Of a DNA stretch of 64,000 nucleotides, positions 1,972 through 44,063 are shown piece by piece. Both the position numbers and the translations under genes were made by a program. The DNA comes from a virus: UHGV virus genome UHGV-0039337. One strand, given 5' to 3'. Each line of letters starts with the position of its first letter. Positions within the stretch are counted from its first letter, which is position 1. Below the pieces are notes generated by a model. The model worked only from the letters and a program-made list of their open reading frames with translations, ran no database searches and was not told the origin of the DNA.

Positions 1972-3753
1972 CTAAAATCTAGTTATTAAATTAGGATCTA
2001 TTTCTTTTATAAATCTAGATATCTTAACATACTTAGATTGTCCATTTATTATTTGATTTTGTGGATATAACATAAATAAATAATCTTTAGCTCTTGTTGC
2101 AGCGACAAACATTAAACGTCTTTCTTCTTCTATTTCTTTAGGAGCAGTAGATCTAAAAGATGGTAAGCATCCTTCAGCTAAATCTATTATCATTACTGCA
2201 GTAAATTCTAATCCTTTAGATTTATGAATAGTAAGTAAGTTAACTGCGTCATCTTCATCTTCTAGTTCTTCTTTGTACAATGATGCTTGTATTACTAAAT
2301 CTTCTATTGTATCATACTCTTTAGCTACACTAACTAGTTCTTGTAGATTTTCTTCTCTATCTGTTAAGTCTTCTCCTTTGTATTGTTGTTTGAACCATGC
2401 ATAGTATCCTGTATTTAATAATATATATTGTATTAGTTCATATGGTTTCATTTCTGTAACAGCTTTTTCTAATTTATTTATTACATCAACATATTCATCT
2501 ATAGAATTCTTAGCTTTACCTTTTAACGGTAAATTCTTATGAATTATAGCATCACGTACATTTAAATTATTGTCTCTGCAAAAGTTTTCTATTTTTTGTA
2601 ATGATACATCGCCTATACTACGTTTAGGACATGATACACTACGTTTAAATGCTTGAAAATCATAAGGATTGACAAGTAGTCTAAGATAACTAAGTACGTC
2701 TTGTATTTCTGCTCTATTAAAGAAAGGAACACCACCAAATATTTTATATTTGATTTTGTTTTCCATTAATACTTTTTCTACATTACGTGATAAATAATTA
2801 TTTCTATATAATATTGCCATATCTTTATAATCTACGCCTTTACTGTGCATAGTTTTAATATATGCTACTGCCTTTTTAGCTTGTTCTTGTTGTGATTTAC
2901 ATGTAGTTACTACAGCATTCATGCCTTTTATATTACGACCACATGATACTTCTTTATCTATTTGATTACTATTATGAGATATTATAGATTTGCCTATATT
3001 AACTATTGTTTCTGTACTTCTATAATTGATTCCTAAGTTATACATTTTAAGATTAGGATAAATAGCTTTTAGATTTATCATATTGTCTACATCTGAGAAT
3101 CTAAAGCCATAGATAGCTTGATAATCATCACCAACAAAGAATATGTTATTATTTGGTCCACTTAATAAATAAGTTAGTCTAGTATCAGCTATAGACATAT
3201 CTTGGCTTTCGTCGCTACTTACATATTTCCATCTATTGTTTATAGTTTCTTTAATGTCTTCGTGTAGTTCTAATAATTTTATAGTATTAAATATTAAATC
3301 ATCAAAGTCCATAACCATTTGTCTTTTAAGTTCATCTTGATATTTTTCATACATATCAGCTACTTGTTTTTCTGTATCATTTGTAGCATTATTCATTGCT
3401 TGTTGAGGAGTTTGGTAATGTGCTTTAAATGCAGCTATAGATGTTTTTATAAGTCCAGCATCTATATTATAAGCTTTGCTTAATTGTTTTATTATCTTAT
3501 CACTATCATTTTCATCCACTATAGTAAATGTTTTAGTATATTCTAATCTATCTGCATATTGTCTTAGTATTCTATTACATATGCTATGATAAGTACCAAC
3601 AGTAATTCTTTTTCCTTTTTCTCCTACTTTATCTACTATACGTTCTTTCATTTCATTAGCTGCTTTATTTGTAAAAGTAGTTAATAATATATTTGCTGGA
3701 TCTATACCATTTAATATCATATATTGAGCTCTTGCTACTATGACTCTAGTTTT
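1972..3753 (-). CDS. UvrD/PcrA/Rep-like SF1 DNA helicase, exon 2
   Basis: The ORF extends in frame upstream of its first Met to ...SKTRVIVARAQYMILNGIDPANILLTTFTNKAANEM, matching UvrD motifs I/Ia (GKTRVLV, TFTNKAA). The Walker A glycine stretch is missing from this exon and is supplied by exon 1. Confidence 0.8.
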   Translation of the reverse strand, partial: KTRVIVARAQYMILNGIDPANILLTTFTNKAANEMKERIVDKVGEKGKRITVGTYHSICNRILRQYADRLEYTKTFTIVDENDSDKIIKQLSKAYNIDAGLIKTSIAAFKAHYQTPQQAMNNATNDTEKQVADMYEKYQDELKRQMVMDFDDLIFNTIKLLELHEDIKETINNRWKYVSSDESQDMSIADTRLTYLLSGPNNNIFFVGDDYQAIYGFRFSDVDNMINLKAIYPNLKMYNLGINYRSTETIVNIGKSIISHNSNQIDKEVSCGRNIKGMNAVVTTCKSQQEQAKKAVAYIKTMHSKGVDYKDMAILYRNNYLSRNVEKVLMENKIKYKIFGGVPFFNRAEIQDVLSYLRLLVNPYDFQAFKRSVSCPKRSIGDVSLQKIENFCRDNNLNVRDAIIHKNLPLKGKAKNSIDEYVDVINKLEKAVTEMKPYELIQYILLNTGYYAWFKQQYKGEDLTDREENLQELVSVAKEYDTIEDLVIQASLYKEELEDEDDAVNLLTIHKSKGLEFTAVMIIDLAEGCLPSFRSTAPKEIEEERRLMFVAATRAKDYLFMLYPQNQIINGQSKYVKISRFIKEIDPNLITRF

Positions 3754-4936
3754 CGAATTTGTTATCGTGAGGCTTTTTATCCTTCACTTCTACGGCTATT
3801 AACCGTAGTCCAGCATATTTTTTCGTGTGATTACTAACTGTGAACACGGTGCGGCCTCGTGGGTTCATTATACTCCTTACTTATAAGGTAAGGGATCAGA
3901 ACCTATGCGTTGCGCCTGGTCGATATTACTATCGTCGCTCACATTACTGCTCGCTAGCTTTTCAGCACCTTCGGTCTCGAGTAGGCTGTCTTTTGACTTT
4001 ACGCCATCCTCGCTTAATTCCGCACTAATACTCTCAGGATTTCTCACAGTCTTATCCTGAGACGGCAATATTCTAAATACTTATTATATTTTCTATCTAA
4101 ATAAACGGTAGCATCTTTATATATATAATCAAATATTTTTTTTAACGAATCAATTTTAAAAATATTTAACGAAGGAACTCTATTTTTATTATTATATATA
4201 TGAATATCATCTTCTTTTAATGTAGAAGTATTTATGATGGCGTTTTTTATATCTTCTAGTACTTGGAAATTATAAGAAACAATTGACCATTTGCAATTTC
4301 CTTTTGTTTTCTTTTTGCCAGATAAACTAAAAGATCCATCTCCATCAAAAACGCCTCTTATAAAATGATGCATAAATTCTTCTGGGATGTTTGGAATTTT
4401 CCATCCATAAGTTTTATTGTGCATTACACCGAGTTCTCTTAATCTATTTGCCATATATGGATCTTGAATAGTAAGTCTATAATATGCATATCCAGATACT
4501 ATCCTAGTGCTGATTTTATGTTCAGCTTCCATATCTGTTTTAAATTTTTCTATGTGTTCCTTATCTTTTATGCATACTTCTAAACTATTCTTTTTTGATA
4601 AATGACCATCAGCAAATATAAAGCCTAACCAATATGCACTTTTTTCATTCCATTCATCAAAGAATTTATTATTAAAATATTTTTTATTATGTTGTGCATG
4701 TTTGGTATTTATTCCTTTTTCGTTAAATTTTTTAGCTAAATAATTTCTATCTCTTTCTAATAATTCAGCTACTTTTGTTAAACTTAATCCATTATTATAT
4801 AATTTGATTGCTATGTTTAATTCTTCTTCAGATATTGATTTTCTAGGCATAGTTAAATTTCTCCTTTATAAAAATATATTTAACTATTTATTACCTAGAC
4901 ATGCCGTTTATTTATTTAAGCATTTAAAAATTATCT
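3754..4936 (-). mobile_element. group I intron (about 1.18 kb) interrupting the UvrD-like helicase within Walker A codons
   Basis: A split P-loop gene. A LAGLIDADG ORF starts about 86 nt into the insert, with its own RBS. A GC-richer structured block of about 290 nt (3754-4043) lies 3' of the ORF. The 5' exon ends in U (GGT) and the intron ends in G. The spliced product reads TATAGAG|KTRVIV, a valid [AG]x4GKT P-loop. Confidence 0.65.
4044..4850 (-). CDS. LAGLIDADG homing endonuclease (intron-encoded)
   Basis: 268 aa with two LAGLIDADG motifs (YWLGFIFADGHL and FIRGVFDGDGSF). Near-paralog of ORF 36563..37357. Confidence 0.85.
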   Translation of the reverse strand: MPRKSISEEELNIAIKLYNNGLSLTKVAELLERDRNYLAKKFNEKGINTKHAQHNKKYFNNKFFDEWNEKSAYWLGFIFADGHLSKKNSLEVCIKDKEHIEKFKTDMEAEHKISTRIVSGYAYYRLTIQDPYMANRLRELGVMHNKTYGWKIPNIPEEFMHHFIRGVFDGDGSFSLSGKKKTKGNCKWSIVSYNFQVLEDIKNAIINTSTLKEDDIHIYNNKNRVPSLNIFKIDSLKKIFDYIYKDATVYLDRKYNKYLEYCRLRIRL

Positions 4937-5038
4937 ACCTGCACCAGCAGTAGCAGTAGTTAAACTAGGTCCTTTTATATGCTTAACAGCTGCTTTTTGT
5001 CCGTCGTTTAATCCTTGCAGCAATTCTTCTGCATTCAT
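4937..5038 (-). CDS. UvrD-like helicase exon 1 (N-terminal about 34 aa)
   Basis: Translating the minus strand from ATG at about 5036-5038 (RBS GGAGG upstream) gives MNAEELLQGLNDGQKAAVKHIKGPSLTTATAGAG. This is the canonical UvrD N-terminus (L-N-x-x-Q-x-x-A-V ... AGAG). A stop follows 2 codons later inside the intron. Confidence 0.6.
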
Positions 5039-7618: not shown

Positions 7619-8776
7619 CGTTTTGTTATCAATAGGCTTTTTATCCTATTTTCTGGGGCATTATACCCATTATGAACCTGTTAATTCAGGTTCCAGTCCA
7701 GCATATCTTTTCATGGATTAAATACCACACCATGGAACGGCCTCGTGGACACATTATATTCTACATAGTAGTTTCAGTGTCTATGCGTTGCGGCTGGTTA
7801 AGCTTTTAAACTTATCCTTCACCTCTGATTACGGACATTACCCGCTTTCCAGATTTTTTCCGTTCTAATAATTCTAAGACTTCTGTGGTTTCGTCTTAGA
7901 ACGGCTAATAAATCGTCCTTTTTCATCTCTTGAGATATATGGATGCTCAAGAGCATGACAGTCTTGACATAATGTGATTCCGTTATTAATATCATTAAAT
8001 TCTTTTGAATTTAATATCTTATCTATATTCATATCATATTTATTGCATATATCATATAATTGATTTACATGGTGAGCATGTAAGTTCTTTTTTGTTTTAC
8101 ATTTAGAACATTCATATTTGTCTCTTTTAAGGATCTTTGCTCTCCATTCATCATATTTTTCATGCGTGCGTAAATAATGCGAAATTTCTTTGTAAGTTTC
8201 TTTCTTATTGGTTCTATATTCATCATAGCATTCTTTACTACAAAAGTGCTTTTCGGCTCTATTATATGCATATTTATTTTTTTCAAATTCTTTATTACAA
8301 TTATCACATATTACAATTTGAGTTTCTTTTTTTGCATATTCAATTCTGCATTTTTTATTACAGAAATGCAGATTATGTTTATTTTTAACAGCTAGCACTT
8401 CTTTTCCACAATTATTACATTTAACAAATTCTTTATTTTTACGTTGTTCTGCTATTCTGCATTCAATAGAACAATATTTTGGAATTTGTCCACGCTTACT
8501 TTGTTTATTATAATATGATTCTTTAAGCTTAAAATTTTTACCACAATGTTGACAAATAAGCGAAATTTCTTTACTATATTTTACTTTTCCTTCTTGTTTT
8601 GCTAATTTAGCATGCTCTTTACAGCAATGAAATACTTTATTTTTGCTTTCATTGTATCTTGTAATGGTAATTTTAAACTCTTTATTACAATAATTGCATT
8701 TGACTATCATTATATATCACGTCCTTAATATATTTATTTATTAAGGTATTACCGTGAATGAACGATTTATTTATTT
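7619..8776 (-). mobile_element. group I intron (about 1.16 kb) in AAA+ ATPase gene between Walker B and sensor-1
   Basis: Exon 1 ends ...IDEVEKNLGG (GGT, ends in U). An HNH ORF starts about 66 nt into the insert. The 255-nt structured block 7619-7873 carries the same conserved core (ggcctcgtgg ... ctatgcgttgcg) as the UvrD and clpX introns. The intron ends in G (acG|TAT). Confidence 0.6.
7874..8710 (-). CDS. HNH homing endonuclease with multiple zinc-ribbon repeats (intron-encoded)
   Basis: 278 aa with repeated CxxC...CxxC modules. The C-terminus HAHHVNQ...N...LCQDCHALEH is an HNH motif. Confidence 0.75.
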   Translation of the reverse strand: MIVKCNYCNKEFKITITRYNESKNKVFHCCKEHAKLAKQEGKVKYSKEISLICQHCGKNFKLKESYYNKQSKRGQIPKYCSIECRIAEQRKNKEFVKCNNCGKEVLAVKNKHNLHFCNKKCRIEYAKKETQIVICDNCNKEFEKNKYAYNRAEKHFCSKECYDEYRTNKKETYKEISHYLRTHEKYDEWRAKILKRDKYECSKCKTKKNLHAHHVNQLYDICNKYDMNIDKILNSKEFNDINNGITLCQDCHALEHPYISRDEKGRFISRSKTKPQKS

Positions 8777-28752: not shown

Positions 28753-30013
28753 ACCCGATTACACCCTCGGTTTCCCGATATTTATCAGGGGTCTAGACTA
28801 TACCTTCGCCATTTCAGGCGCACTGAACGTAGTCGTTGGACTCCTCCTGTTCGGAGTCGGCTGCTGATTTTCCATTAATTCACCCTTAGCACGTATTTAA
28901 TAATACGCTTTTGTCTCAGCTTAGGTAATCCTCAATACTTTTTTCTGCTTTCGCAACATTCATATAAGTTTGTTTCATCTTATATTGTAGTGATTAAGGC
29001 TTTAGGAATTCCCAGCAAGCGGTCAGTGTAATAATCCTATAGGTTATTATTCCCTATAAGACGACTATATTTATAAATTAATTATATTTTAAATAGAGAT
29101 TTAAATAACGTTCAAATTTGCGTTCCATATATATAGTACAATCTAAATATAACCAACTCATTATTTGATATACTTGATTATCACCACATAATCTTAAACT
29201 TTGAACGTTTCCGTCTCCGTTTTTATGTCTTTTTTGTAATTTTACATTCTCTTTATTTAAAATTGTTTTAAGCGTTTCTAAAAATTCTGTAGTACCTAAT
29301 ATACTAATATCATAAGTATGATATTTTTTATCTCCTGATATTGACAGAGATCCATCTCCATCAAAATATCCTCTAATAAAATGTCTTTGTAATTCTTTTG
29401 GTACTATATCCTCTGAAGGAAATAAACAATGATTGGTTTTATCAAGGCTAAAACCTTTATTAACTAAATCTTGATACATCTTTTTGCTAGTTATAACCAT
29501 TTTTGACTCTCTTGTAATACAATCAAAACTTTTATTGTAATGTTCATAATCTCTTATTGGATACGTAGAGTCTATATCTTTTTTAAATTTTTCTATCATA
29601 TTACGATCTTTTGTGGCTAACGTTAATCCTATTTCATTCCCTCTATTTGTTATATATCCATCAGCCATTAAAAAACCCAACCAATAAGCTTTATGTTCTG
29701 TATCAATAACTTCAAAGTAATTATCATTTACTTTATTTCTTCTTAAATCATCAGGACTTTTCTTTTGATATAGTCCTGCTTTAATTAAAACTGGATAAAT
29801 AGTTTGAGGTTTTCTATCTTTTAACGATTCTTTATTCTCACAAATCCATTTTACGCTATGTCCCTCTTTATATTTATTGCATATCCATTTTTTATCTTCT
29901 TCAGAAAATGATTTTCTTATTCTTTTTGTCAATATATTCACCCCAATATTTAGTTTCTTTATCTAAATATTACGGTGAACGTAGACGCTTATAATAATTA
30001 TTTATAAATCTTA
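28753..30013 (-). mobile_element. group I intron (about 1.26 kb) in gyrB at the Toprim DxDxD|G codons
   Basis: Exon 2 ends DADVD (GAT, U) followed directly by a stop. Exon 3 begins GYHI after tcG. A LAGLIDADG ORF starts about 72 nt into the insert. A 325-nt structured block 28753-29077 lies 3' of it. Confidence 0.65.
29078..29941 (-). CDS. LAGLIDADG homing endonuclease (intron-encoded)
   Basis: 287 aa with YWLGFLMADGYI and FIRGYFDGDGSL. Same family as the UvrD- and clpX-intron HEGs. Confidence 0.85.
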   Translation of the reverse strand: MNILTKRIRKSFSEEDKKWICNKYKEGHSVKWICENKESLKDRKPQTIYPVLIKAGLYQKKSPDDLRRNKVNDNYFEVIDTEHKAYWLGFLMADGYITNRGNEIGLTLATKDRNMIEKFKKDIDSTYPIRDYEHYNKSFDCITRESKMVITSKKMYQDLVNKGFSLDKTNHCLFPSEDIVPKELQRHFIRGYFDGDGSLSISGDKKYHTYDISILGTTEFLETLKTILNKENVKLQKRHKNGDGNVQSLRLCGDNQVYQIMSWLYLDCTIYMERKFERYLNLYLKYN

Positions 30014-31194: not shown

Positions 31195-31869
31195 CAATAG
31201 TTCACATAGGTTCGCTATTCCTATGCCGCACTATTACGTGCAGCCTCTAGTTTTCACTAGGGATCGGACTATATCATCACCCTTTAATAAGGGGTTCTCC
31301 ATTTCCATTTAATAGGTAATTAAGAGCCTTATTACGGCTCACCTAACCGCTTGGCTGTACTCTACTCACTTCTGTTACTATCAGAATCGCTTTCGATAGT
31401 CTCTGAACTTTCATTTATTCCATTTAAATAACCAAATTCTTGTTCTTTTTCTCTTCTAAAATCAATACACATCTGTTTAGCTTGTTCATAACCATATTTT
31501 TTACACGATCTTGATATTCTACATTTTTTATGTTCATTATCTTTTATTTCTGCAATCCAAGAATCTCTACTTTTATCATATCTTACACCTTTTATTCCGC
31601 TTGTGTTACATTCTCTTAATGATGTATTTTTTAAATTTTCGTGTCTTGTTGTTATTCTTAAATTGTTTTTACGATTATCCAGACCGTTATGATTTAAATG
31701 ATCTACAACAATGTCGTAACCTTCTACGTCTAATATTAATCTGTGCAAATATATTGGTTATATAAAATAAATGTTTAGCTGCTGATTGCCATATGCTTAT
31801 GCACTTAGGTTTCCAGCAATTAAAAGAATTTTTCGATACACATTACTGCGTAAAGGGACTAAATAGTTA
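31195..31869 (-). mobile_element. group I intron (about 0.68 kb) in gyrB ATPase-domain codons (..SAGL|NGVG..)
   Basis: Exon 1 reads K-S-A-G-L then a stop 2 codons later. Splicing GGAT|TAAATGGC restores AGLNGVGAS, which is colinear with GyrB GGLHGVGVS. The 5' exon ends in U and the intron ends in G. An HNH-AP2 ORF sits in the middle, with structured flanks 31195-31361 and 31749-31869. Confidence 0.6.
31362..31748 (-). CDS. HNH homing endonuclease with AP2-like DNA-binding domain (intron-encoded)
   Basis: 128 aa. DHLNHNGLDNRKNNLRITTRHENLKN (HNH_3) followed by GVRYDKSRDSWIAEI (AP2-like). Confidence 0.7.
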   Translation of the reverse strand: MHRLILDVEGYDIVVDHLNHNGLDNRKNNLRITTRHENLKNTSLRECNTSGIKGVRYDKSRDSWIAEIKDNEHKKCRISRSCKKYGYEQAKQMCIDFRREKEQEFGYLNGINESSETIESDSDSNRSE

Positions 31870-35380: not shown

Positions 35381-36250
35381 TTATTCAATTGCTTCTTTTG
35401 CTGTTTCTCTTAATATATCTACTGTTAAATCTTCACGTACTATTACTTTTTTTACTGTAGGATCTCCTGGAACCTCAAATTTGGTTTCAAATAATATATC
35501 TTCCATTACTGTTCTTAATGCTCTAGCACCCATTTTTCTTTCTTTTGCTTTTTGTGCTATTTTAGGCAATGCACCTTCTTCTATGTCAAAATCTATACCA
35601 TCCATTTTAAATTCTTCTTTATATTGTTTTAATAAAGCATGTTTAGGTTGAGTTAGAATCTTAACCATGGCTTCTTCACTTAATTCATGATATACAGCTA
35701 ATAATGGACATCTGCCTATAACTTCTGGTATTATACCAAATTCTACTAAATCATCTGGTATGACTTGAGATATAACATTATTATAATCCATTTCTCCTTT
35801 TGATTCTGGCTTACCATTAAACCCTATGCCTACAGATCCTTTTTTAAGTCTTTTATTTATTATTTCTTCTAGACCTACAAATGCTCCACCTAATATAAAT
35901 AATATATTAGTAGTGTCTATTTTAACGCTTTTAGAATCTAATTTATTTAATTTAACGTCCATTTCGCAGCCTTCAATCATTTTTAGTATAGATTGTTGTA
36001 CTGCTTTACCGTTAACATCTTTGTTATCTCCTCTTGCATCAGATGCTTTAATTTTGTCAAATTCATCTATAAATACTATTCCTTTTTGTGTTTTTTCTAC
36101 GTCTCTACCTGCTGCGATATATAAATCTTTTATCATATCCTCTGTATCACGTCCAACATATCCTGTGCTTGAGAAAGAACTGGCGTCTTGTATAGTAAAT
36201 GGTATATCCATACAAGAACATATAGCTCTTATGGTTTCACTTTTCCCACT
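35381..36250 (-). CDS. clpX: ClpX ATPase, exon 2
   Basis: In-frame extension SGKSETIRAICSCMDIPFTIQDASSFSSTGYVGRDTE...GIVFIDEFDKI aligns with ClpX [37 protein letters not shown]...GIVYIDEIDKI. Confidence 0.8.
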   Translation of the reverse strand, partial: SGKSETIRAICSCMDIPFTIQDASSFSSTGYVGRDTEDMIKDLYIAAGRDVEKTQKGIVFIDEFDKIKASDARGDNKDVNGKAVQQSILKMIEGCEMDVKLNKLDSKSVKIDTTNILFILGGAFVGLEEIINKRLKKGSVGIGFNGKPESKGEMDYNNVISQVIPDDLVEFGIIPEVIGRCPLLAVYHELSEEAMVKILTQPKHALLKQYKEEFKMDGIDFDIEEGALPKIAQKAKERKMGARALRTVMEDILFETKFEVPGDPTVKKVIVREDLTVDILRETAKEAIE

Positions 36251-37441
36251 CGTTCGTTATTAGCGCATAGTTTTTTATCTATGCCTCTGGGCCATTACAG
36301 CCATTTTCATCGGTGTGTTAATTCACACTCAGTCTAGCGTACTTGTTTACGTAATTTACTTGGACAAAACGTAGGACGGCCTCTTGGTGCATTATTTCAG
36401 CACTACGCGTTGCGCCTGACGTGTTGACATATCAACACTCACTATATCACTATAGCTTATCCACTTTTATAGTGGCGCCTTCGGGCTCGAATACACTGTA
36501 TGCAATTTACAATCATACTTTACGTGATCTTCGCTTAATTCCATCCTCATAATCTAGAGTCTTCATTGTCCTTTTGGCTCTAGACGGCAGTAATCTAAGT
36601 ATTTTTTATATTTTCTATCTAAATATATTGTAGCATCTTTATATAACCATTTTAAAAATGCTTCTAACGCTTTAGTACTTGATATATTTAATTCAGGTAT
36701 TTTATAGTCATATTCATAAATTCTAATATGATCTATGGTTTCTTCAACATTATATTTAATAGTTTCTATTAATGATTCTAAAACTGTTCTATCATAGCAT
36801 ATAATTCTAAAAGTAGTACTACCTTTAGTTCTTATGTTTAGGTTTCCATCTCCATCGTATAATCCTCTTATAAAATGATTCATATATTCATTAGGTATAT
36901 CTGGAACAACCCATCCATATGTTTTGTTATGCACTACTCCTAGTTCTTTTAATTTTGTTGCTATAATTTTATCTCTTATATTTATTCTATAATAATCAGT
37001 TCCATTTATTGTTTTTATTCCTACTTTGTGGCTGCTTTCTATATCTGCTTTAAATTTTTCTATGTGTTCTTTATCTTTTATACATATGTCGAGTCCTCCA
37101 TCTTCTGATAAATATCCATCAGCAAATATAAAACCTAACCAATAAGCACTTTTTTCATTCCATTCATTAAAGAAATTACTATTAACTGATTTTTTATTAT
37201 AATGTTGAACTATATTAACACCTGCGGCTTTCATTCTAATAGAAAGCGTACCTCTGTCTCTTTTTAACTGTTTTGCTATTTTAGTAATACTTAAGCCTTC
37301 ATTAAACATATTAGTGGCTTGTTGTATCTCTTCATCTGATATCCTCAAGATAATCACTCCATATTGTGTATTTATCTCTATATTACCGCTACCAGATGAT
37401 CTAATAGAAAATATTGTAAATTTTACTTAGATTATTTGTTT
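36251..37441 (-). mobile_element. group I intron (about 1.19 kb) in clpX inside the Walker A codons (GPTG|SGKS)
   Basis: Exon 1 ends GPTG (GGT, U) then KQII-stop. A LAGLIDADG ORF starts about 84 nt into the insert. The 312-nt structured block 36251-36562 shares the core (ggacggcctcttggtg ... ctacgcgttgcgcctg) with the UvrD and AAA+ introns. Exon 2 begins after acG. Confidence 0.65.
36563..37357 (-). CDS. LAGLIDADG homing endonuclease (intron-encoded)
   Basis: 264 aa with YWLGFIFADGYL and FIRGLYDGDGNL. Over half its residues look identical to ORF 4044..4850 by eye. Confidence 0.85.
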   Translation of the reverse strand: MIILRISDEEIQQATNMFNEGLSITKIAKQLKRDRGTLSIRMKAAGVNIVQHYNKKSVNSNFFNEWNEKSAYWLGFIFADGYLSEDGGLDICIKDKEHIEKFKADIESSHKVGIKTINGTDYYRINIRDKIIATKLKELGVVHNKTYGWVVPDIPNEYMNHFIRGLYDGDGNLNIRTKGSTTFRIICYDRTVLESLIETIKYNVEETIDHIRIYEYDYKIPELNISSTKALEAFLKWLYKDATIYLDRKYKKYLDYCRLEPKGQ

Positions 37442-37843
37442 ACCGGTTGGGCCTAAGAATATAATATTTGATTTATCTATTCTTAATTTATTAGATGCAC
37501 TAGGATCTTCTTCTAATCTTTTTATTCTTTTAGTATGAGAATATAGTTCTGTTGCTATAGTTACTTTAGGTCTTTCTTGTTCTATAACCCAATCATCAAG
37601 ATATTTCTTTATATCTCTTGGAGTATTTATTTCAGTTTTTGCTTGTTCACTATCTTTTTCTAATAAAACTTTTTGTCTTTCTTCAAATTTTTCATATCCT
37701 AATTTTAAACAATTAGAACATATTCTTATCTTTTTGCCATCTACATTTGCTTTAGATTTGTATAAAACAATACCTTTTTCACTTAATTCTTCTTCAGTAT
37801 ATTCTTTACCACAGAAATTACATTTTTTAGTATTCTCAGCCAT
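37442..37843 (-). CDS. clpX: ClpX ATPase, exon 1 (zinc-binding N-domain to Walker A start)
   Basis: CNFCGK...CSNC zinc finger. RDIKKYLDDWVIEQERPKVTIATELYSHTKRIKRL...KSNIIFLGPTG aligns with ClpX PKEI...LD.YVIGQE.AKK.L.VAVYNHYKRL...KSNILLIGPTG. Confidence 0.8.
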
Positions 37844-43979: not shown

Positions 43980-44063
43980 TGGAGCCAATAGTAGGAATTG
44001 AACCTGCATCTGTAAAGATAAAATAAATTATTTTTACCGTTCTTACAATTGAACTATATCGGC
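43980..44063 (-). tRNA. tRNA-like gene with encoded CCA and atypically expanded anticodon arm (identity undetermined)
   Basis: The minus strand reads GCCGATA-TA-GTTC-AATTGTAA-GAAC-G-[GTAAA-16nt-TTTAC]-AGAT-GCAGG-TTCAATT-CCTAC-TATTGGC-T-CCA. The acceptor, D-arm and T-arm (GTTCAATTC T-loop) are good. The anticodon region is 26 nt instead of 17. Confidence 0.5.

Follow-up and report, generated by a model that had tools for sequence, protein, structure and literature searches.

We analyzed a 64,000-nucleotide (nt) stretch of the virus genome UHGV-0039337 (hereafter the window, at its full length), in which the gene of a UvrD/PcrA-like helicase and clpX are each interrupted, within the codons of the Walker A motif (P-loop), by a group I intron, I1 and I2 respectively. 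We consider it likely that I1 and I2 are two mobile IA-like introns of one ribozyme family with a LAGLIDADG homing endonuclease gene (HEG) in the loop of P1, that they are ancient paralogues, and that their family reached the P-loops of several non-orthologous ATPases by repeated movement. Directly observed were the intron boundaries, the fold, the position of the guide, the clade membership of the HEGs, the distribution over genes and P-loop registers, and the existence of empty, occupied and open reading frame (ORF)-less alleles. The window is AT-rich (27.6% GC), with five GC islands (41-43% GC) that are structured RNA. The helicase gene, clpX and all the introns discussed lie on the minus strand, to which all coordinates below refer.

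Intron boundaries, ribozyme fold and guide sequence

In the helicase gene, exon 1 (4937..5038, 34 codons), placed by the PcrA alignment of the spliced product, ends ..A-T-A-G-A-G with GGT as its last codon, and exon 2 (1972..3753), placed by its ORF and the same alignment, begins K-T-R-V-I-V-A-R... Between them lies I1 (3754..4936, 1183 nt, IA-like), which separates the Gly and Lys of Walker A (G|KT). In sense orientation the junction reads ..GCTGGTGCAGGT|AGATAA...AAATTCG|AAAACTAGA, or, over a longer reading, ..ACTGCTGGTGCAGGT|AGATAATTT.. on the 5' side and ..GATAACAAATTCG|AAAACTAGAGTC.. on the 3' side, and an in-frame stop stands one codon past the 5' splice site (AGA TAA). When 4937..5038 was joined to 1972..3753, we obtained a 616-residue helicase whose N-terminal 298 residues give a gap-free alignment to PcrA (2pjr_A, E=2.1e-56, residues 3-297, collinear across the junction); ..TATAGAGKTRV.. 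falls over ..MAGAGSGKTRV.. of PcrA and Walker A is restored. The nearest helicase of a cultured phage, PcrA of Bacillus phage 0305phi8-36, is 43% identical and uninterrupted. Separately, positions 2060-2157 of helicase exon 2 gave a weak, sub-threshold Rfam match (31 bits, gathering score 65) to 'Clostridioides difficile sRNA included into helicase gene'. This match probably reflects the conserved helicase coding sequence, and it may hint at a clostridial host range.

The clpX gene has clpP immediately upstream. Its exon 1 (37442..37843) encodes the zinc-ribbon N-domain and ends G-P-T-G, the last codon again being GGT, and its exon 2 (35381..36250) begins S-G-K-S-E-T-I-R... The intron between them, I2 (36251..37441, 1191 nt), has the junction ..CCAACCGGT|AAACAA...GAACG|AGTGGGAAAAGT (longer reading: ..GGCCCAACCGGT|AAACAAATA.. 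and ..AATAACGAACG|AGTGGGAAAAGT..). The joined exons encode a 423-residue ClpX that matches 8e91_A (E=1.9e-88, residues 32-409) without a gap at the junction, with ..GPTGSGKS.. over ..GPTGSGKT... In both cases U is the last base of the 5' exon and G the last base of the intron (..CG|), and an in-frame stop follows at most five codons past the splice site. An earlier note on this DNA had stated that both introns split Walker A right after GGT. This holds for both, and splicing restores both P-loops, but the registers differ: I1 stands at A-T-A-G-A-G|K-T and I2 at G-P-T-G|S-G-K-S, two codons upstream.

To define the ribozyme family, we used a profile of the 3' segment, which has 135 copies among the collected loci (given L numbers below) and exactly three in the window: I1 (E=4.9e-62), I2 (E=3.9e-62) and a third intron, I3, at 7619..8776. 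In addition, the 16-nt motif CAGSCGCAACGCRTAG matched at least 120 viral contigs. The fold was tested on 33 non-redundant family cores. RNAalifold independently predicted P3, P4, P6/P6a, P7.1/7.2, P8, P9 and P9.x, with 30 of 36 pairs compensatory. For the named structure including the P7 pseudoknot, 97.8% of the cells were paired, against 31-40% in slid controls; 31 of its 41 pairs changed on both sides, and none of 500 shuffles equalled the observed values. P7 is GCAUA/UAUGC, with A-U replaced by G-C in six sequences including I2; J3/4 is AAUUAA or AAAAAA, J8/7 is AAAAGA or similar, and the helix directly 3' of P7 (alignment columns 173-177/210-214) is compensatory in five of five pairs. P7.1/7.2 lies between P7 and the 3' strand of P3, which is the hallmark of subgroup IA.

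In I1, this covariation-supported core spans 3754..4025. Helix mapping, with two offsets adjusted manually, placed P3 at 4020-4025/3849-3854, P4 at 4009-4012/3978-3981, P5 at 3984-4005, P6 with P6a at 3915-3974, P7 at 3904-3908/3813-3817, P7.1/7.2 at 3862-3903, P8 at 3824-3848, P9 at 3790-3808, P9.x at 3767-3787 and the omega-G at 3754. In I2, P3 was mapped to 36541-36547/36373-36379 and P7 (GCGUA/UACGC) to 36404-36408/36337-36341. A first model of P6, a local ACC-GAA-GGU hairpin, was dropped, as covariation favours CC/GG (or GU/GC) closing a longer P6a. The P2 hairpin of I1 (UCUCAGGAU..AUCCUGAGA, 4032..4062) spans the HEG stop codon (4044..4046), and I2 has a compensatory version of it, UCUAGAG/CUCUAGA; an Rfam miRNA match on the I1 hairpin is spurious.

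The internal guide of I1, UUGCCG (4063..4068), lies inside the HEG codons ..Y-C-R-L. Its GCC pairs with the exon GGU, with U.G at the splice site (GGU|AG with UUGCC), and its UU pairs either with the first intron bases (P1) or with the first 3'-exon bases AA (P10). In I2, the guide ACUGCCG (36585-36591) pairs UGCCG with CGGU|A. In nearly all the ORF-bearing members checked, the last ORF codons hold U(U)GCCGU, followed by the P2 hairpin across the stop codon and then P3; GCCGT was not found in this check of ORF ends in L136 or L047. In three relatives that lack an ORF, namely L022 (261 nt), L017 (315 nt) and L191, the distance between the 5' splice site and GCCG is only 8-25 nt; the minimum free energy fold of the first two gives GGUAA/UUGCC. 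Therefore, GCC(G) is the guide, and the P1 loop contains the ORF, whose reading frame includes the guide. P10 is compensatory across the family: ACU/AGU (I2, L181), UGU/ACA (L124), GAU/GUC (L182) and UUU(U)/AAA or AAGA (L179, L129, L180). A first 'P2' that paired GGUA of the 5' segment with UGCC at the ORF end was dropped once the ORF-less relatives identified this UGCC as the guide, and a brute-force guide search near the intron 5' end returned only noise.

All 30-odd mapped members stand directly after GGT, in any gene and with any ORF, since the guide GCC(G) pairs with the exon GGU. UUGCC is moreover complementary to GGU|AA, that is, to the Gly-Lys codons of Walker A. That the GGT rule extends to members outside P-loops and to those without an ORF shows a real constraint at the level of RNA. 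I1 and I2 are predicted to self-splice in a GTP-dependent manner.

The endonuclease ORF of I1, HEG1 (4044..4850, 268 residues), encodes a double-motif LAGLIDADG protein with an N-terminal helix-turn-helix. HEG2 (36563..37357) encodes a LAGLIDADG protein of the same build, with 264 residues counted from GTG, although a TTG at about 37348, after GGAG, is more likely the true start. Pfam LAGLIDADG_3 scored 33.2 bits for HEG1 and 29.3 bits for HEG2 (cutoff 22.5), and HEG1 is also above the LAGLIDADG_1 cutoff (26.7 bits). The motifs read YWLGFIFADGH and HFIRGVFDGDGS, and D81/G82 and D171/G172, with the catalytic Asp of both motifs, are invariant in nine homologues. Both proteins are predicted to be active endonucleases that cut at specific sites. 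As the earlier note had described, the two introns share one architecture, with 86 nt 5' and 290 nt 3' of the ORF in I1 and 84 and 312 nt in I2. This layout is not unique to the pair, as I3, which stands after GGT outside a P-loop and carries an HNH ORF, has it too.

Spread of the intron family across P-loop genes

The closest relatives of HEG1 (96% identical in L132, 68% in L121) are both in UvrD genes at the same site. Those of HEG2 (63-94% in the trimmed alignment; P0007 at 94%, others at 72-76%) are all at ClpX GPTG|x, and these ClpX-site relatives are 51-55% identical to HEG1. The whole clade, at 48-55% identity to HEG1, is monophyletic against outgroups, with bootstrap values of 99% for its Clp clade and 100% for its UvrD clade. 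The ratio of nonsynonymous to synonymous substitution (dN/dS) was 0.075 between HEG1 and its 96% orthologue and 0.08-0.35 over seven within-site comparisons, which indicates purifying selection on the HEGs. In nucleotide searches of 50,697 phage records we found no close relative, and in protein searches the best identity was at most 43% for the helicase and 35% for the HEG.

The members of this HEG clade occupy Walker A codons of three non-orthologous genes, namely UvrD, ClpX and the second nucleotide-binding domain (NBD2) of a ClpB/C-like protein. In UvrD (GxG|KT) they are I1, L132 and L121; in ClpX they are found in register A (GPTG|xGK: I2, L123, L124, L133, L181 and L182) and in register B (GPTGxG|KT: L127 and L179); and in ClpC-NBD2 they are in register B (GxG|KT: L129, L180 and L131). 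Register A (GxxG|xGK) was observed in ClpX only, where the I2 guide ACU-GCCG matches AGU. Register B (GxG|K[ST]) is used in UvrD, ClpX, ClpB/C-NBD2 and AAA+ ATPases, with the target consensus aC.GGt.ctGGT|AAaAC. The I1 site matches the ClpC site of L131 at 17 of 24 positions, a score reached by none of 468 random GGT sites. Outside the HEG clade, the ribozyme family also occupies GxG|K[ST] in AAA+ ATPases (L047, L159, L170), in ClpB/C (L135), in a UvrD-like helicase (the L090 group) and in a TGxG|KTRS protein (L022, L017), as well as GyrA, GyrB and Walker-B-type sites.

The register-B ribozymes resemble one another strikingly from gene to gene. The core of L121 (UvrD) is 88% identical to that of L127 (ClpX) and 85-86% identical to those of L129 and L180 (ClpC), all at GxG|KT; L121 and L127 share their first 20 nt, and all four introns end CGATAACAA.ACTG.

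A comparison with intron-less homologues in related phages, which the earlier note had put forward, yielded an empty UvrD allele in L183 (66% protein identity; junction ACTGCAACTGCAGGTGCTGGT|AAAACTAGAGTCATA, 33/36 against the I1 exon junction). At the same site, L191 has an ORF-less intron whose first 19 nt and guide are those of the ORF-bearing introns, L136 has an intron with a different LAGLIDADG (38% identity), and L185 and L186 have a +1 frameshift. In ClpX, L127 and L179 have no intron at register A, and the window and five relatives have none at register B. Together with the purifying selection on the HEGs, we take these alleles as evidence that the element is live.

Two further observations concern these loci. 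In L185 and L186 (IMG/VR, 185-187 kb), the frameshift is a one-base insertion in UvrD codons about 30-36 (GGTGCCAGGTAAAAC vs GGTGCTGGTAAAAC), a few bases from the insertion point; it might be a scar of homing-site repair, a resistant pseudogene or an assembly error. In L182 (2784-3768 and downstream), the register-A intron is followed about 40 codons on, after ..FSATG, by a second intron of the same family with a different LAGLIDADG ORF, whose 3' end reads ..GCCGTCTCAGG.. and then GTGCGGAATTAAGCGGGG.

On our preferred reading of repeated movement, P-loop DNA would be permissive to the family in two ways. The guide (UU)GCC(G) would pair with GGU|AA, which in an AT-rich genome is the invariant Gly-Lys pair GGU-AAA/G, and any such P-loop would therefore be cleanly spliceable. 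The endonuclease is expected to read about 20 bp centred on the insertion site, kept constant by GxxGxGK[ST] coding, and a tolerant enzyme would find near-cognate sites in other ATPase genes. New P-loops would be colonised either through cleavage of near-cognate DNA and illegitimate repair, or through reverse splicing at GGU|AA; the data do not discriminate between these two routes. After each jump, ordinary allelic homing between related phages would maintain the intron, and the endonuclease cassette and the ribozyme could be exchanged independently. I1 is a register-B member whose ribozyme is closest to the Clp register-B introns of other phages; the probable direction of movement is from Clp to UvrD. 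The concentration in invariant motifs fits an endonuclease and selection acting as filters.

Several points weigh against this reading. Splicing and cleavage are deduced from sequence. Protein coding imposes much of the likeness among register-B targets, and recognition by the HEG as its cause is not provable from that likeness alone. The relatives are mostly short metagenomic contigs of unknown genome affiliation. P1 is short in the UvrD introns (GGUAG/UUGCC, 5 bp with two wobbles, and a P10 of 2 bp only), and it shows no covariation, since its 5'-exon partner is always GGU. The Rfam model RF00028 (Intron_gpI) had no match in the window or in the isolated cores, either at the gathering score or at E<=10, and the Rfam scans otherwise gave chance matches; because two classical-looking gyrB introns of the window were missed too, we attribute this to model sensitivity and ORF insertions and not to the absence of an intron. 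Finally, the distances of HEGs and cores disagree. L121 and L127 have HEGs that are 50% identical on cores at 88%, and across L121, L127 and L129, in three host genes, the HEGs are at 46-52% against 85-88% for the cores, loops included; I1 and L121, conversely, have HEGs at 69% and cores at only 63%. Since these distances disagree, the endonuclease cassette and the ribozyme must have partly separate histories. Either intron and HEG did not always move together or the cores were homogenised by recombination, and the pattern of L121, L127, L129 and L180 suggests cassette replacement or such homogenisation.

We also observed, in the 5' segments, a copy of a ClpX-type P-loop target (CCWACTGGTnnnGGTAATA, 30-65 nt from the intron 5' end). 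In I1 it is the degenerate ACGGCATGTCTAGGTAATAAATAG (4884..4907), upstream of the hairpin that holds the ribosome-binding site and start codon (4849..4887), and in I2 it lies at 37378-37399. This mimic is present in every intron with a HEG of the I1/I2 clade (5' segments of I1, I2, L123, L124, L127, L179, L131 and L182), and neither the relatives without an ORF nor the introns of other HEG lineages have it. Its p value is 0.026 for I1; of 11 Clp introns, 7 reach significance (p<=0.005), and the copies in the UvrD introns are degenerate. That the mimic tracks its own exon was rejected, as non-cognate targets score as high as cognate ones and introns with other HEGs lack it. Its GGUAAUA can pair with the guide UAUUGCC, and the mimic may be a relic, or it may serve as an operator or a switch. 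Work by Edgell et al. in 2004 and by Loizos et al. in 1994 reportedly described an I-TevI operator in the td intron and homing-site-like sequences flanking HEG ORFs. An exon-target-like sequence in the intron just upstream of the HEG ORF is common to that system and to ours; unlike I-TevI, a GIY-YIG enzyme, the predicted enzyme here is a LAGLIDADG, and the mimic is Clp-P-loop-like even in UvrD introns and can pair with the intron's own guide.

A broader proposal, which we find possible but advance tentatively, is that the lineage is doubly pre-adapted to the Gly-Lys codons of Walker A, of all codon pairs in biology the most conserved, by a guide UUGCC directed against GGU|AA and by an enzyme that reads P-loop DNA, and that it hops among UvrD, ClpX, ClpB/C and AAA+ genes within and between phages, as the counterpart in RNA of the P-loop inteins. 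With the guide inside the ORF, the mimic may then be a switch or operator through which endonuclease translation is linked with splicing and self-immunity.

It is somewhat doubtful, although a good deal speaks for it, that ORF-less ribozymes reached or resided in each ATPase gene, and that a LAGLIDADG cassette (mimic, ribosome-binding-site hairpin and ORF) later invaded their P1 loops, so that the paralogy of I1 and I2 would be mainly that of their HEGs. The ORF-less intron of L191 exactly at the UvrD site, those of L022 and L017 at GxG|KT, the unrelated LAGLIDADG of L136 at the UvrD site, and I3, with the same core and an HNH ORF, would all be accounted for, and so would the discordant distances and a Clp-like mimic that travels with the I1/I2 HEG lineage only; HEG invasion of introns is also an accepted pathway (PMC3984707). 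However, ORF-less ribozymes must still have reached many P-loops, and ectopic movement is thus uncoupled from the HEG, not avoided. L121, L127 and L129 are nearly identical in their 5' ends and cores, which suggests a recent co-movement of RNA parts across genes.

It is unlikely that the spread to new P-loops took place through RNA, by reverse splicing into mRNA or single-stranded DNA at a guide-chosen GGU|AA followed by reverse transcription and recombination, with the HEG serving only later allelic homing. The GGT rule, which includes the non-P-loop sites of I3 (..GGAGGT|) and L068 (..TATGGT|), the conserved guide complementary to GGU|AA and the ORF-less members in P-loops (L022, L017, L191) are all in line with this route, and reverse splicing requires only 4-6 nt of complementarity (PMC3984707; PMC2504315). 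But no reverse transcriptase is in view, and reviews note that direct evidence is lacking (PMC3984707). GGU|AA is common (the coding strand of the window has 468 GGT sites) and yet the insertions cluster in conserved motifs, and a preference for GGT is also expected simply from spliceability.

Divergence of I1 and I2

The repeated movement that we favour does not make I1 and I2 a donor and its recipient. The earlier note had pointed to a conserved core, and the 3' cores are indeed homologous (about 62% identity, z=9.9 against shuffles); however, they are no closer to each other than either is to I3, and the 5' segments show no likeness above shuffled sequence (z=0.1). The endonucleases, which had been taken for near-identical, have an identity of 50.8% by tblastn (49% in the trimmed alignment), with a synonymous divergence (dS) of about 0.77; a third LAGLIDADG of the window (29078..29941) is at 31%. 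HEG1 and HEG2 are clear paralogues. Apart from its orthologue in L132, the I1 core is nearest to that of L131 (ClpC-NBD2, register B; 84% of aligned positions), and the I2 core is nearest to its ClpX orthologues (87-92%).

The earlier note had also taken the two targets to be similar and had named a lack of significant similarity beyond GGT as a refutation; for this pair, no such similarity was seen. Aligned at the insertion point, they match at 8 of 24 positions (5 of 21 outside GGT), which is below the mean of the 468 coding-strand GGT sites of the window against the I1 site (9.2+/-2.2; 78% score at least 8/24). An offset of 6 nt brings the P-loops into register and raises the match to 13 of 24 (p about 0.005), but the insertion points then differ. 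The proposal of one element invading similar, non-allelic GxxGxGK targets therefore fails for this pair of introns; for the family as a whole, with its three genes and its register-B targets, it stands.

A recent copying of one intron-HEG unit between clpX and uvrD within this genome, through cross-recognition by the endonuclease, is very improbable. Such copying would suit two introns of one genome that share a ribozyme family and a HEG clade, that both follow GGT in Walker A and whose exons match in P-loop register. Against it stand the 6-nt offset between the insertion points in that register, the low identity at the insertion points themselves, the distances between the HEGs and between the cores, and the unrelated 5' segments. 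In addition, the clpX of the window has GGG and not GGT at register B, and a G at -1 cannot form the U.G pair. Since I1 and I2 each have same-site orthologues in related uncultured phages, neither is a recent copy of the other, and the two are best read as anciently diverged paralogues and not as a donor-recipient pair.

There is next to no chance that the elements are pseudogenes, inteins or genes split by free-standing endonuclease genes, even with the missing Rfam match and with gene callers that give the exons as separate ORFs on related contigs, given that precise U|...G| boundaries restore Walker A and full-length collinear alignments, that the 3' segment of about 300 nt is GC-rich (42-43% vs 27.6%) with strong helix covariation including the P3/P7 pseudoknot, and that the ORFs, being out of frame with the exons and preceded by stops, are not inteins.

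Known systems and other features of the window

The elements are ordinary in kind, as phage group I introns with LAGLIDADG HEGs in conserved genes of DNA metabolism. With the known mobile IA introns of T4 and of phages that infect Gram-positive bacteria (td, nrdB, SPO1/SPbeta, Twort, Bacillus recA/nrdE; Hausner, Hafez & Edgell 2014, PMC3984707) they have in common a P1-P10 fold of the self-splicing type, insertion in conserved DNA-metabolism codons, a stop in frame shortly past the 5' splice site, a peripheral loop that carries the HEG, related phages whose alleles are empty, ORF-less or occupied, and a separable HEG and ribozyme. Unlike those introns, the ORF is here in the P1 loop, with the guide about 870 nt from the 5' splice site and within the HEG frame; at least five ATPase families have a member of one ribozyme family between the Gly and Lys codons of Walker A; and the Rfam model misses the introns described here.

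A LAGLIDADG-type selfish element that recurs in the P-loops of unrelated ATPases (UvrD, helicases, AAA+) is known from inteins (Novikova et al., 2016, PMC4760082; Kelley et al., 2016, PMC5050341). Proteins that bind ATP host about 70% of inteins, the 'classic' P-loop site is K|T, and the usual rationale is that invariant codons offer a stable homing site (PMC5050341, PMC4760082). Here, unlike the inteins, the element is an RNA ribozyme, its site is one codon earlier (G|K vs K|T), and a guide complementary to the Gly-Lys codons adds a second, independent preference for P-loops.

That group I introns transpose ectopically is a widespread assumption with little evidence behind it, most of it from ribosomal DNA (rDNA) (PMC3984707), and the ectopic HEG and reverse-splicing routes are plausible, accepted hypotheses without direct proof (PMC3984707; PMC2504315). 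Ectopic spread by reverse splicing has its best circumstantial evidence in related introns at different rDNA sites (Bhattacharya et al., 2005, PMC1299323; cited in PMC3984707). Closely related ribozymes at non-allelic sites that share only a short guide match are common to both systems. Unlike the rDNA introns, ours are in protein-coding targets, in a phage host and with HEGs present, and with a cross-site core identity of 85-88% the cross-gene events of the family are therefore comparatively recent. In a full-text literature search we found no group I intron described in clpX or at P-loop codons.

The family offers 85-88% identical ribozymes in three protein-coding genes, a GGU|AA guide rule, HEGs subject to purifying selection and natural empty sites, and both routes, relaxed HEG specificity and reverse splicing, become directly testable in vitro. 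It also gives the attraction of selfish elements to P-loops a basis at the level of RNA, in addition to what is known from inteins. The window holds five introns in 64 kb, and neither Rfam nor gene callers detected any of them. In AT-rich phages of this kind, the genes of ATPases, helicases and gyrases are therefore systematically mis-annotated as fragments.

The third member of the family in the window, I3 (profile E=1.4e-46), interrupts an AAA-ATPase gene after ..EKNLGG and has an HNH/zinc-ribbon ORF (7874..8710) in place of the LAGLIDADG ORF. Its exon junction follows ..LLIDEVEKNLGG (GGT|TAT), and its 5' segment and 3' half are nearer to I1 than those of I2 are. The two remaining introns interrupt a gyrB-like gene and have classical P/Q/R/S-type cores: one (28756-30013) carries a LAGLIDADG ORF (29078-29941) and the other (31195-31869) an HNH-AP2 ORF (31362-31748). 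After splicing, the gyrB-like topoisomerase reads ..SDADVD|GYHI.. and ..KSAGL|NGVGAS... Elsewhere in the window, the Rfam tRNA model matched 43983-44063 with 47.7 bits. ARAGORN reported no tRNA in the window, so this match is unconfirmed; the anticodon-loop region is 16 nt long instead of 7, and the sequence may be an interrupted or degenerate tRNA.

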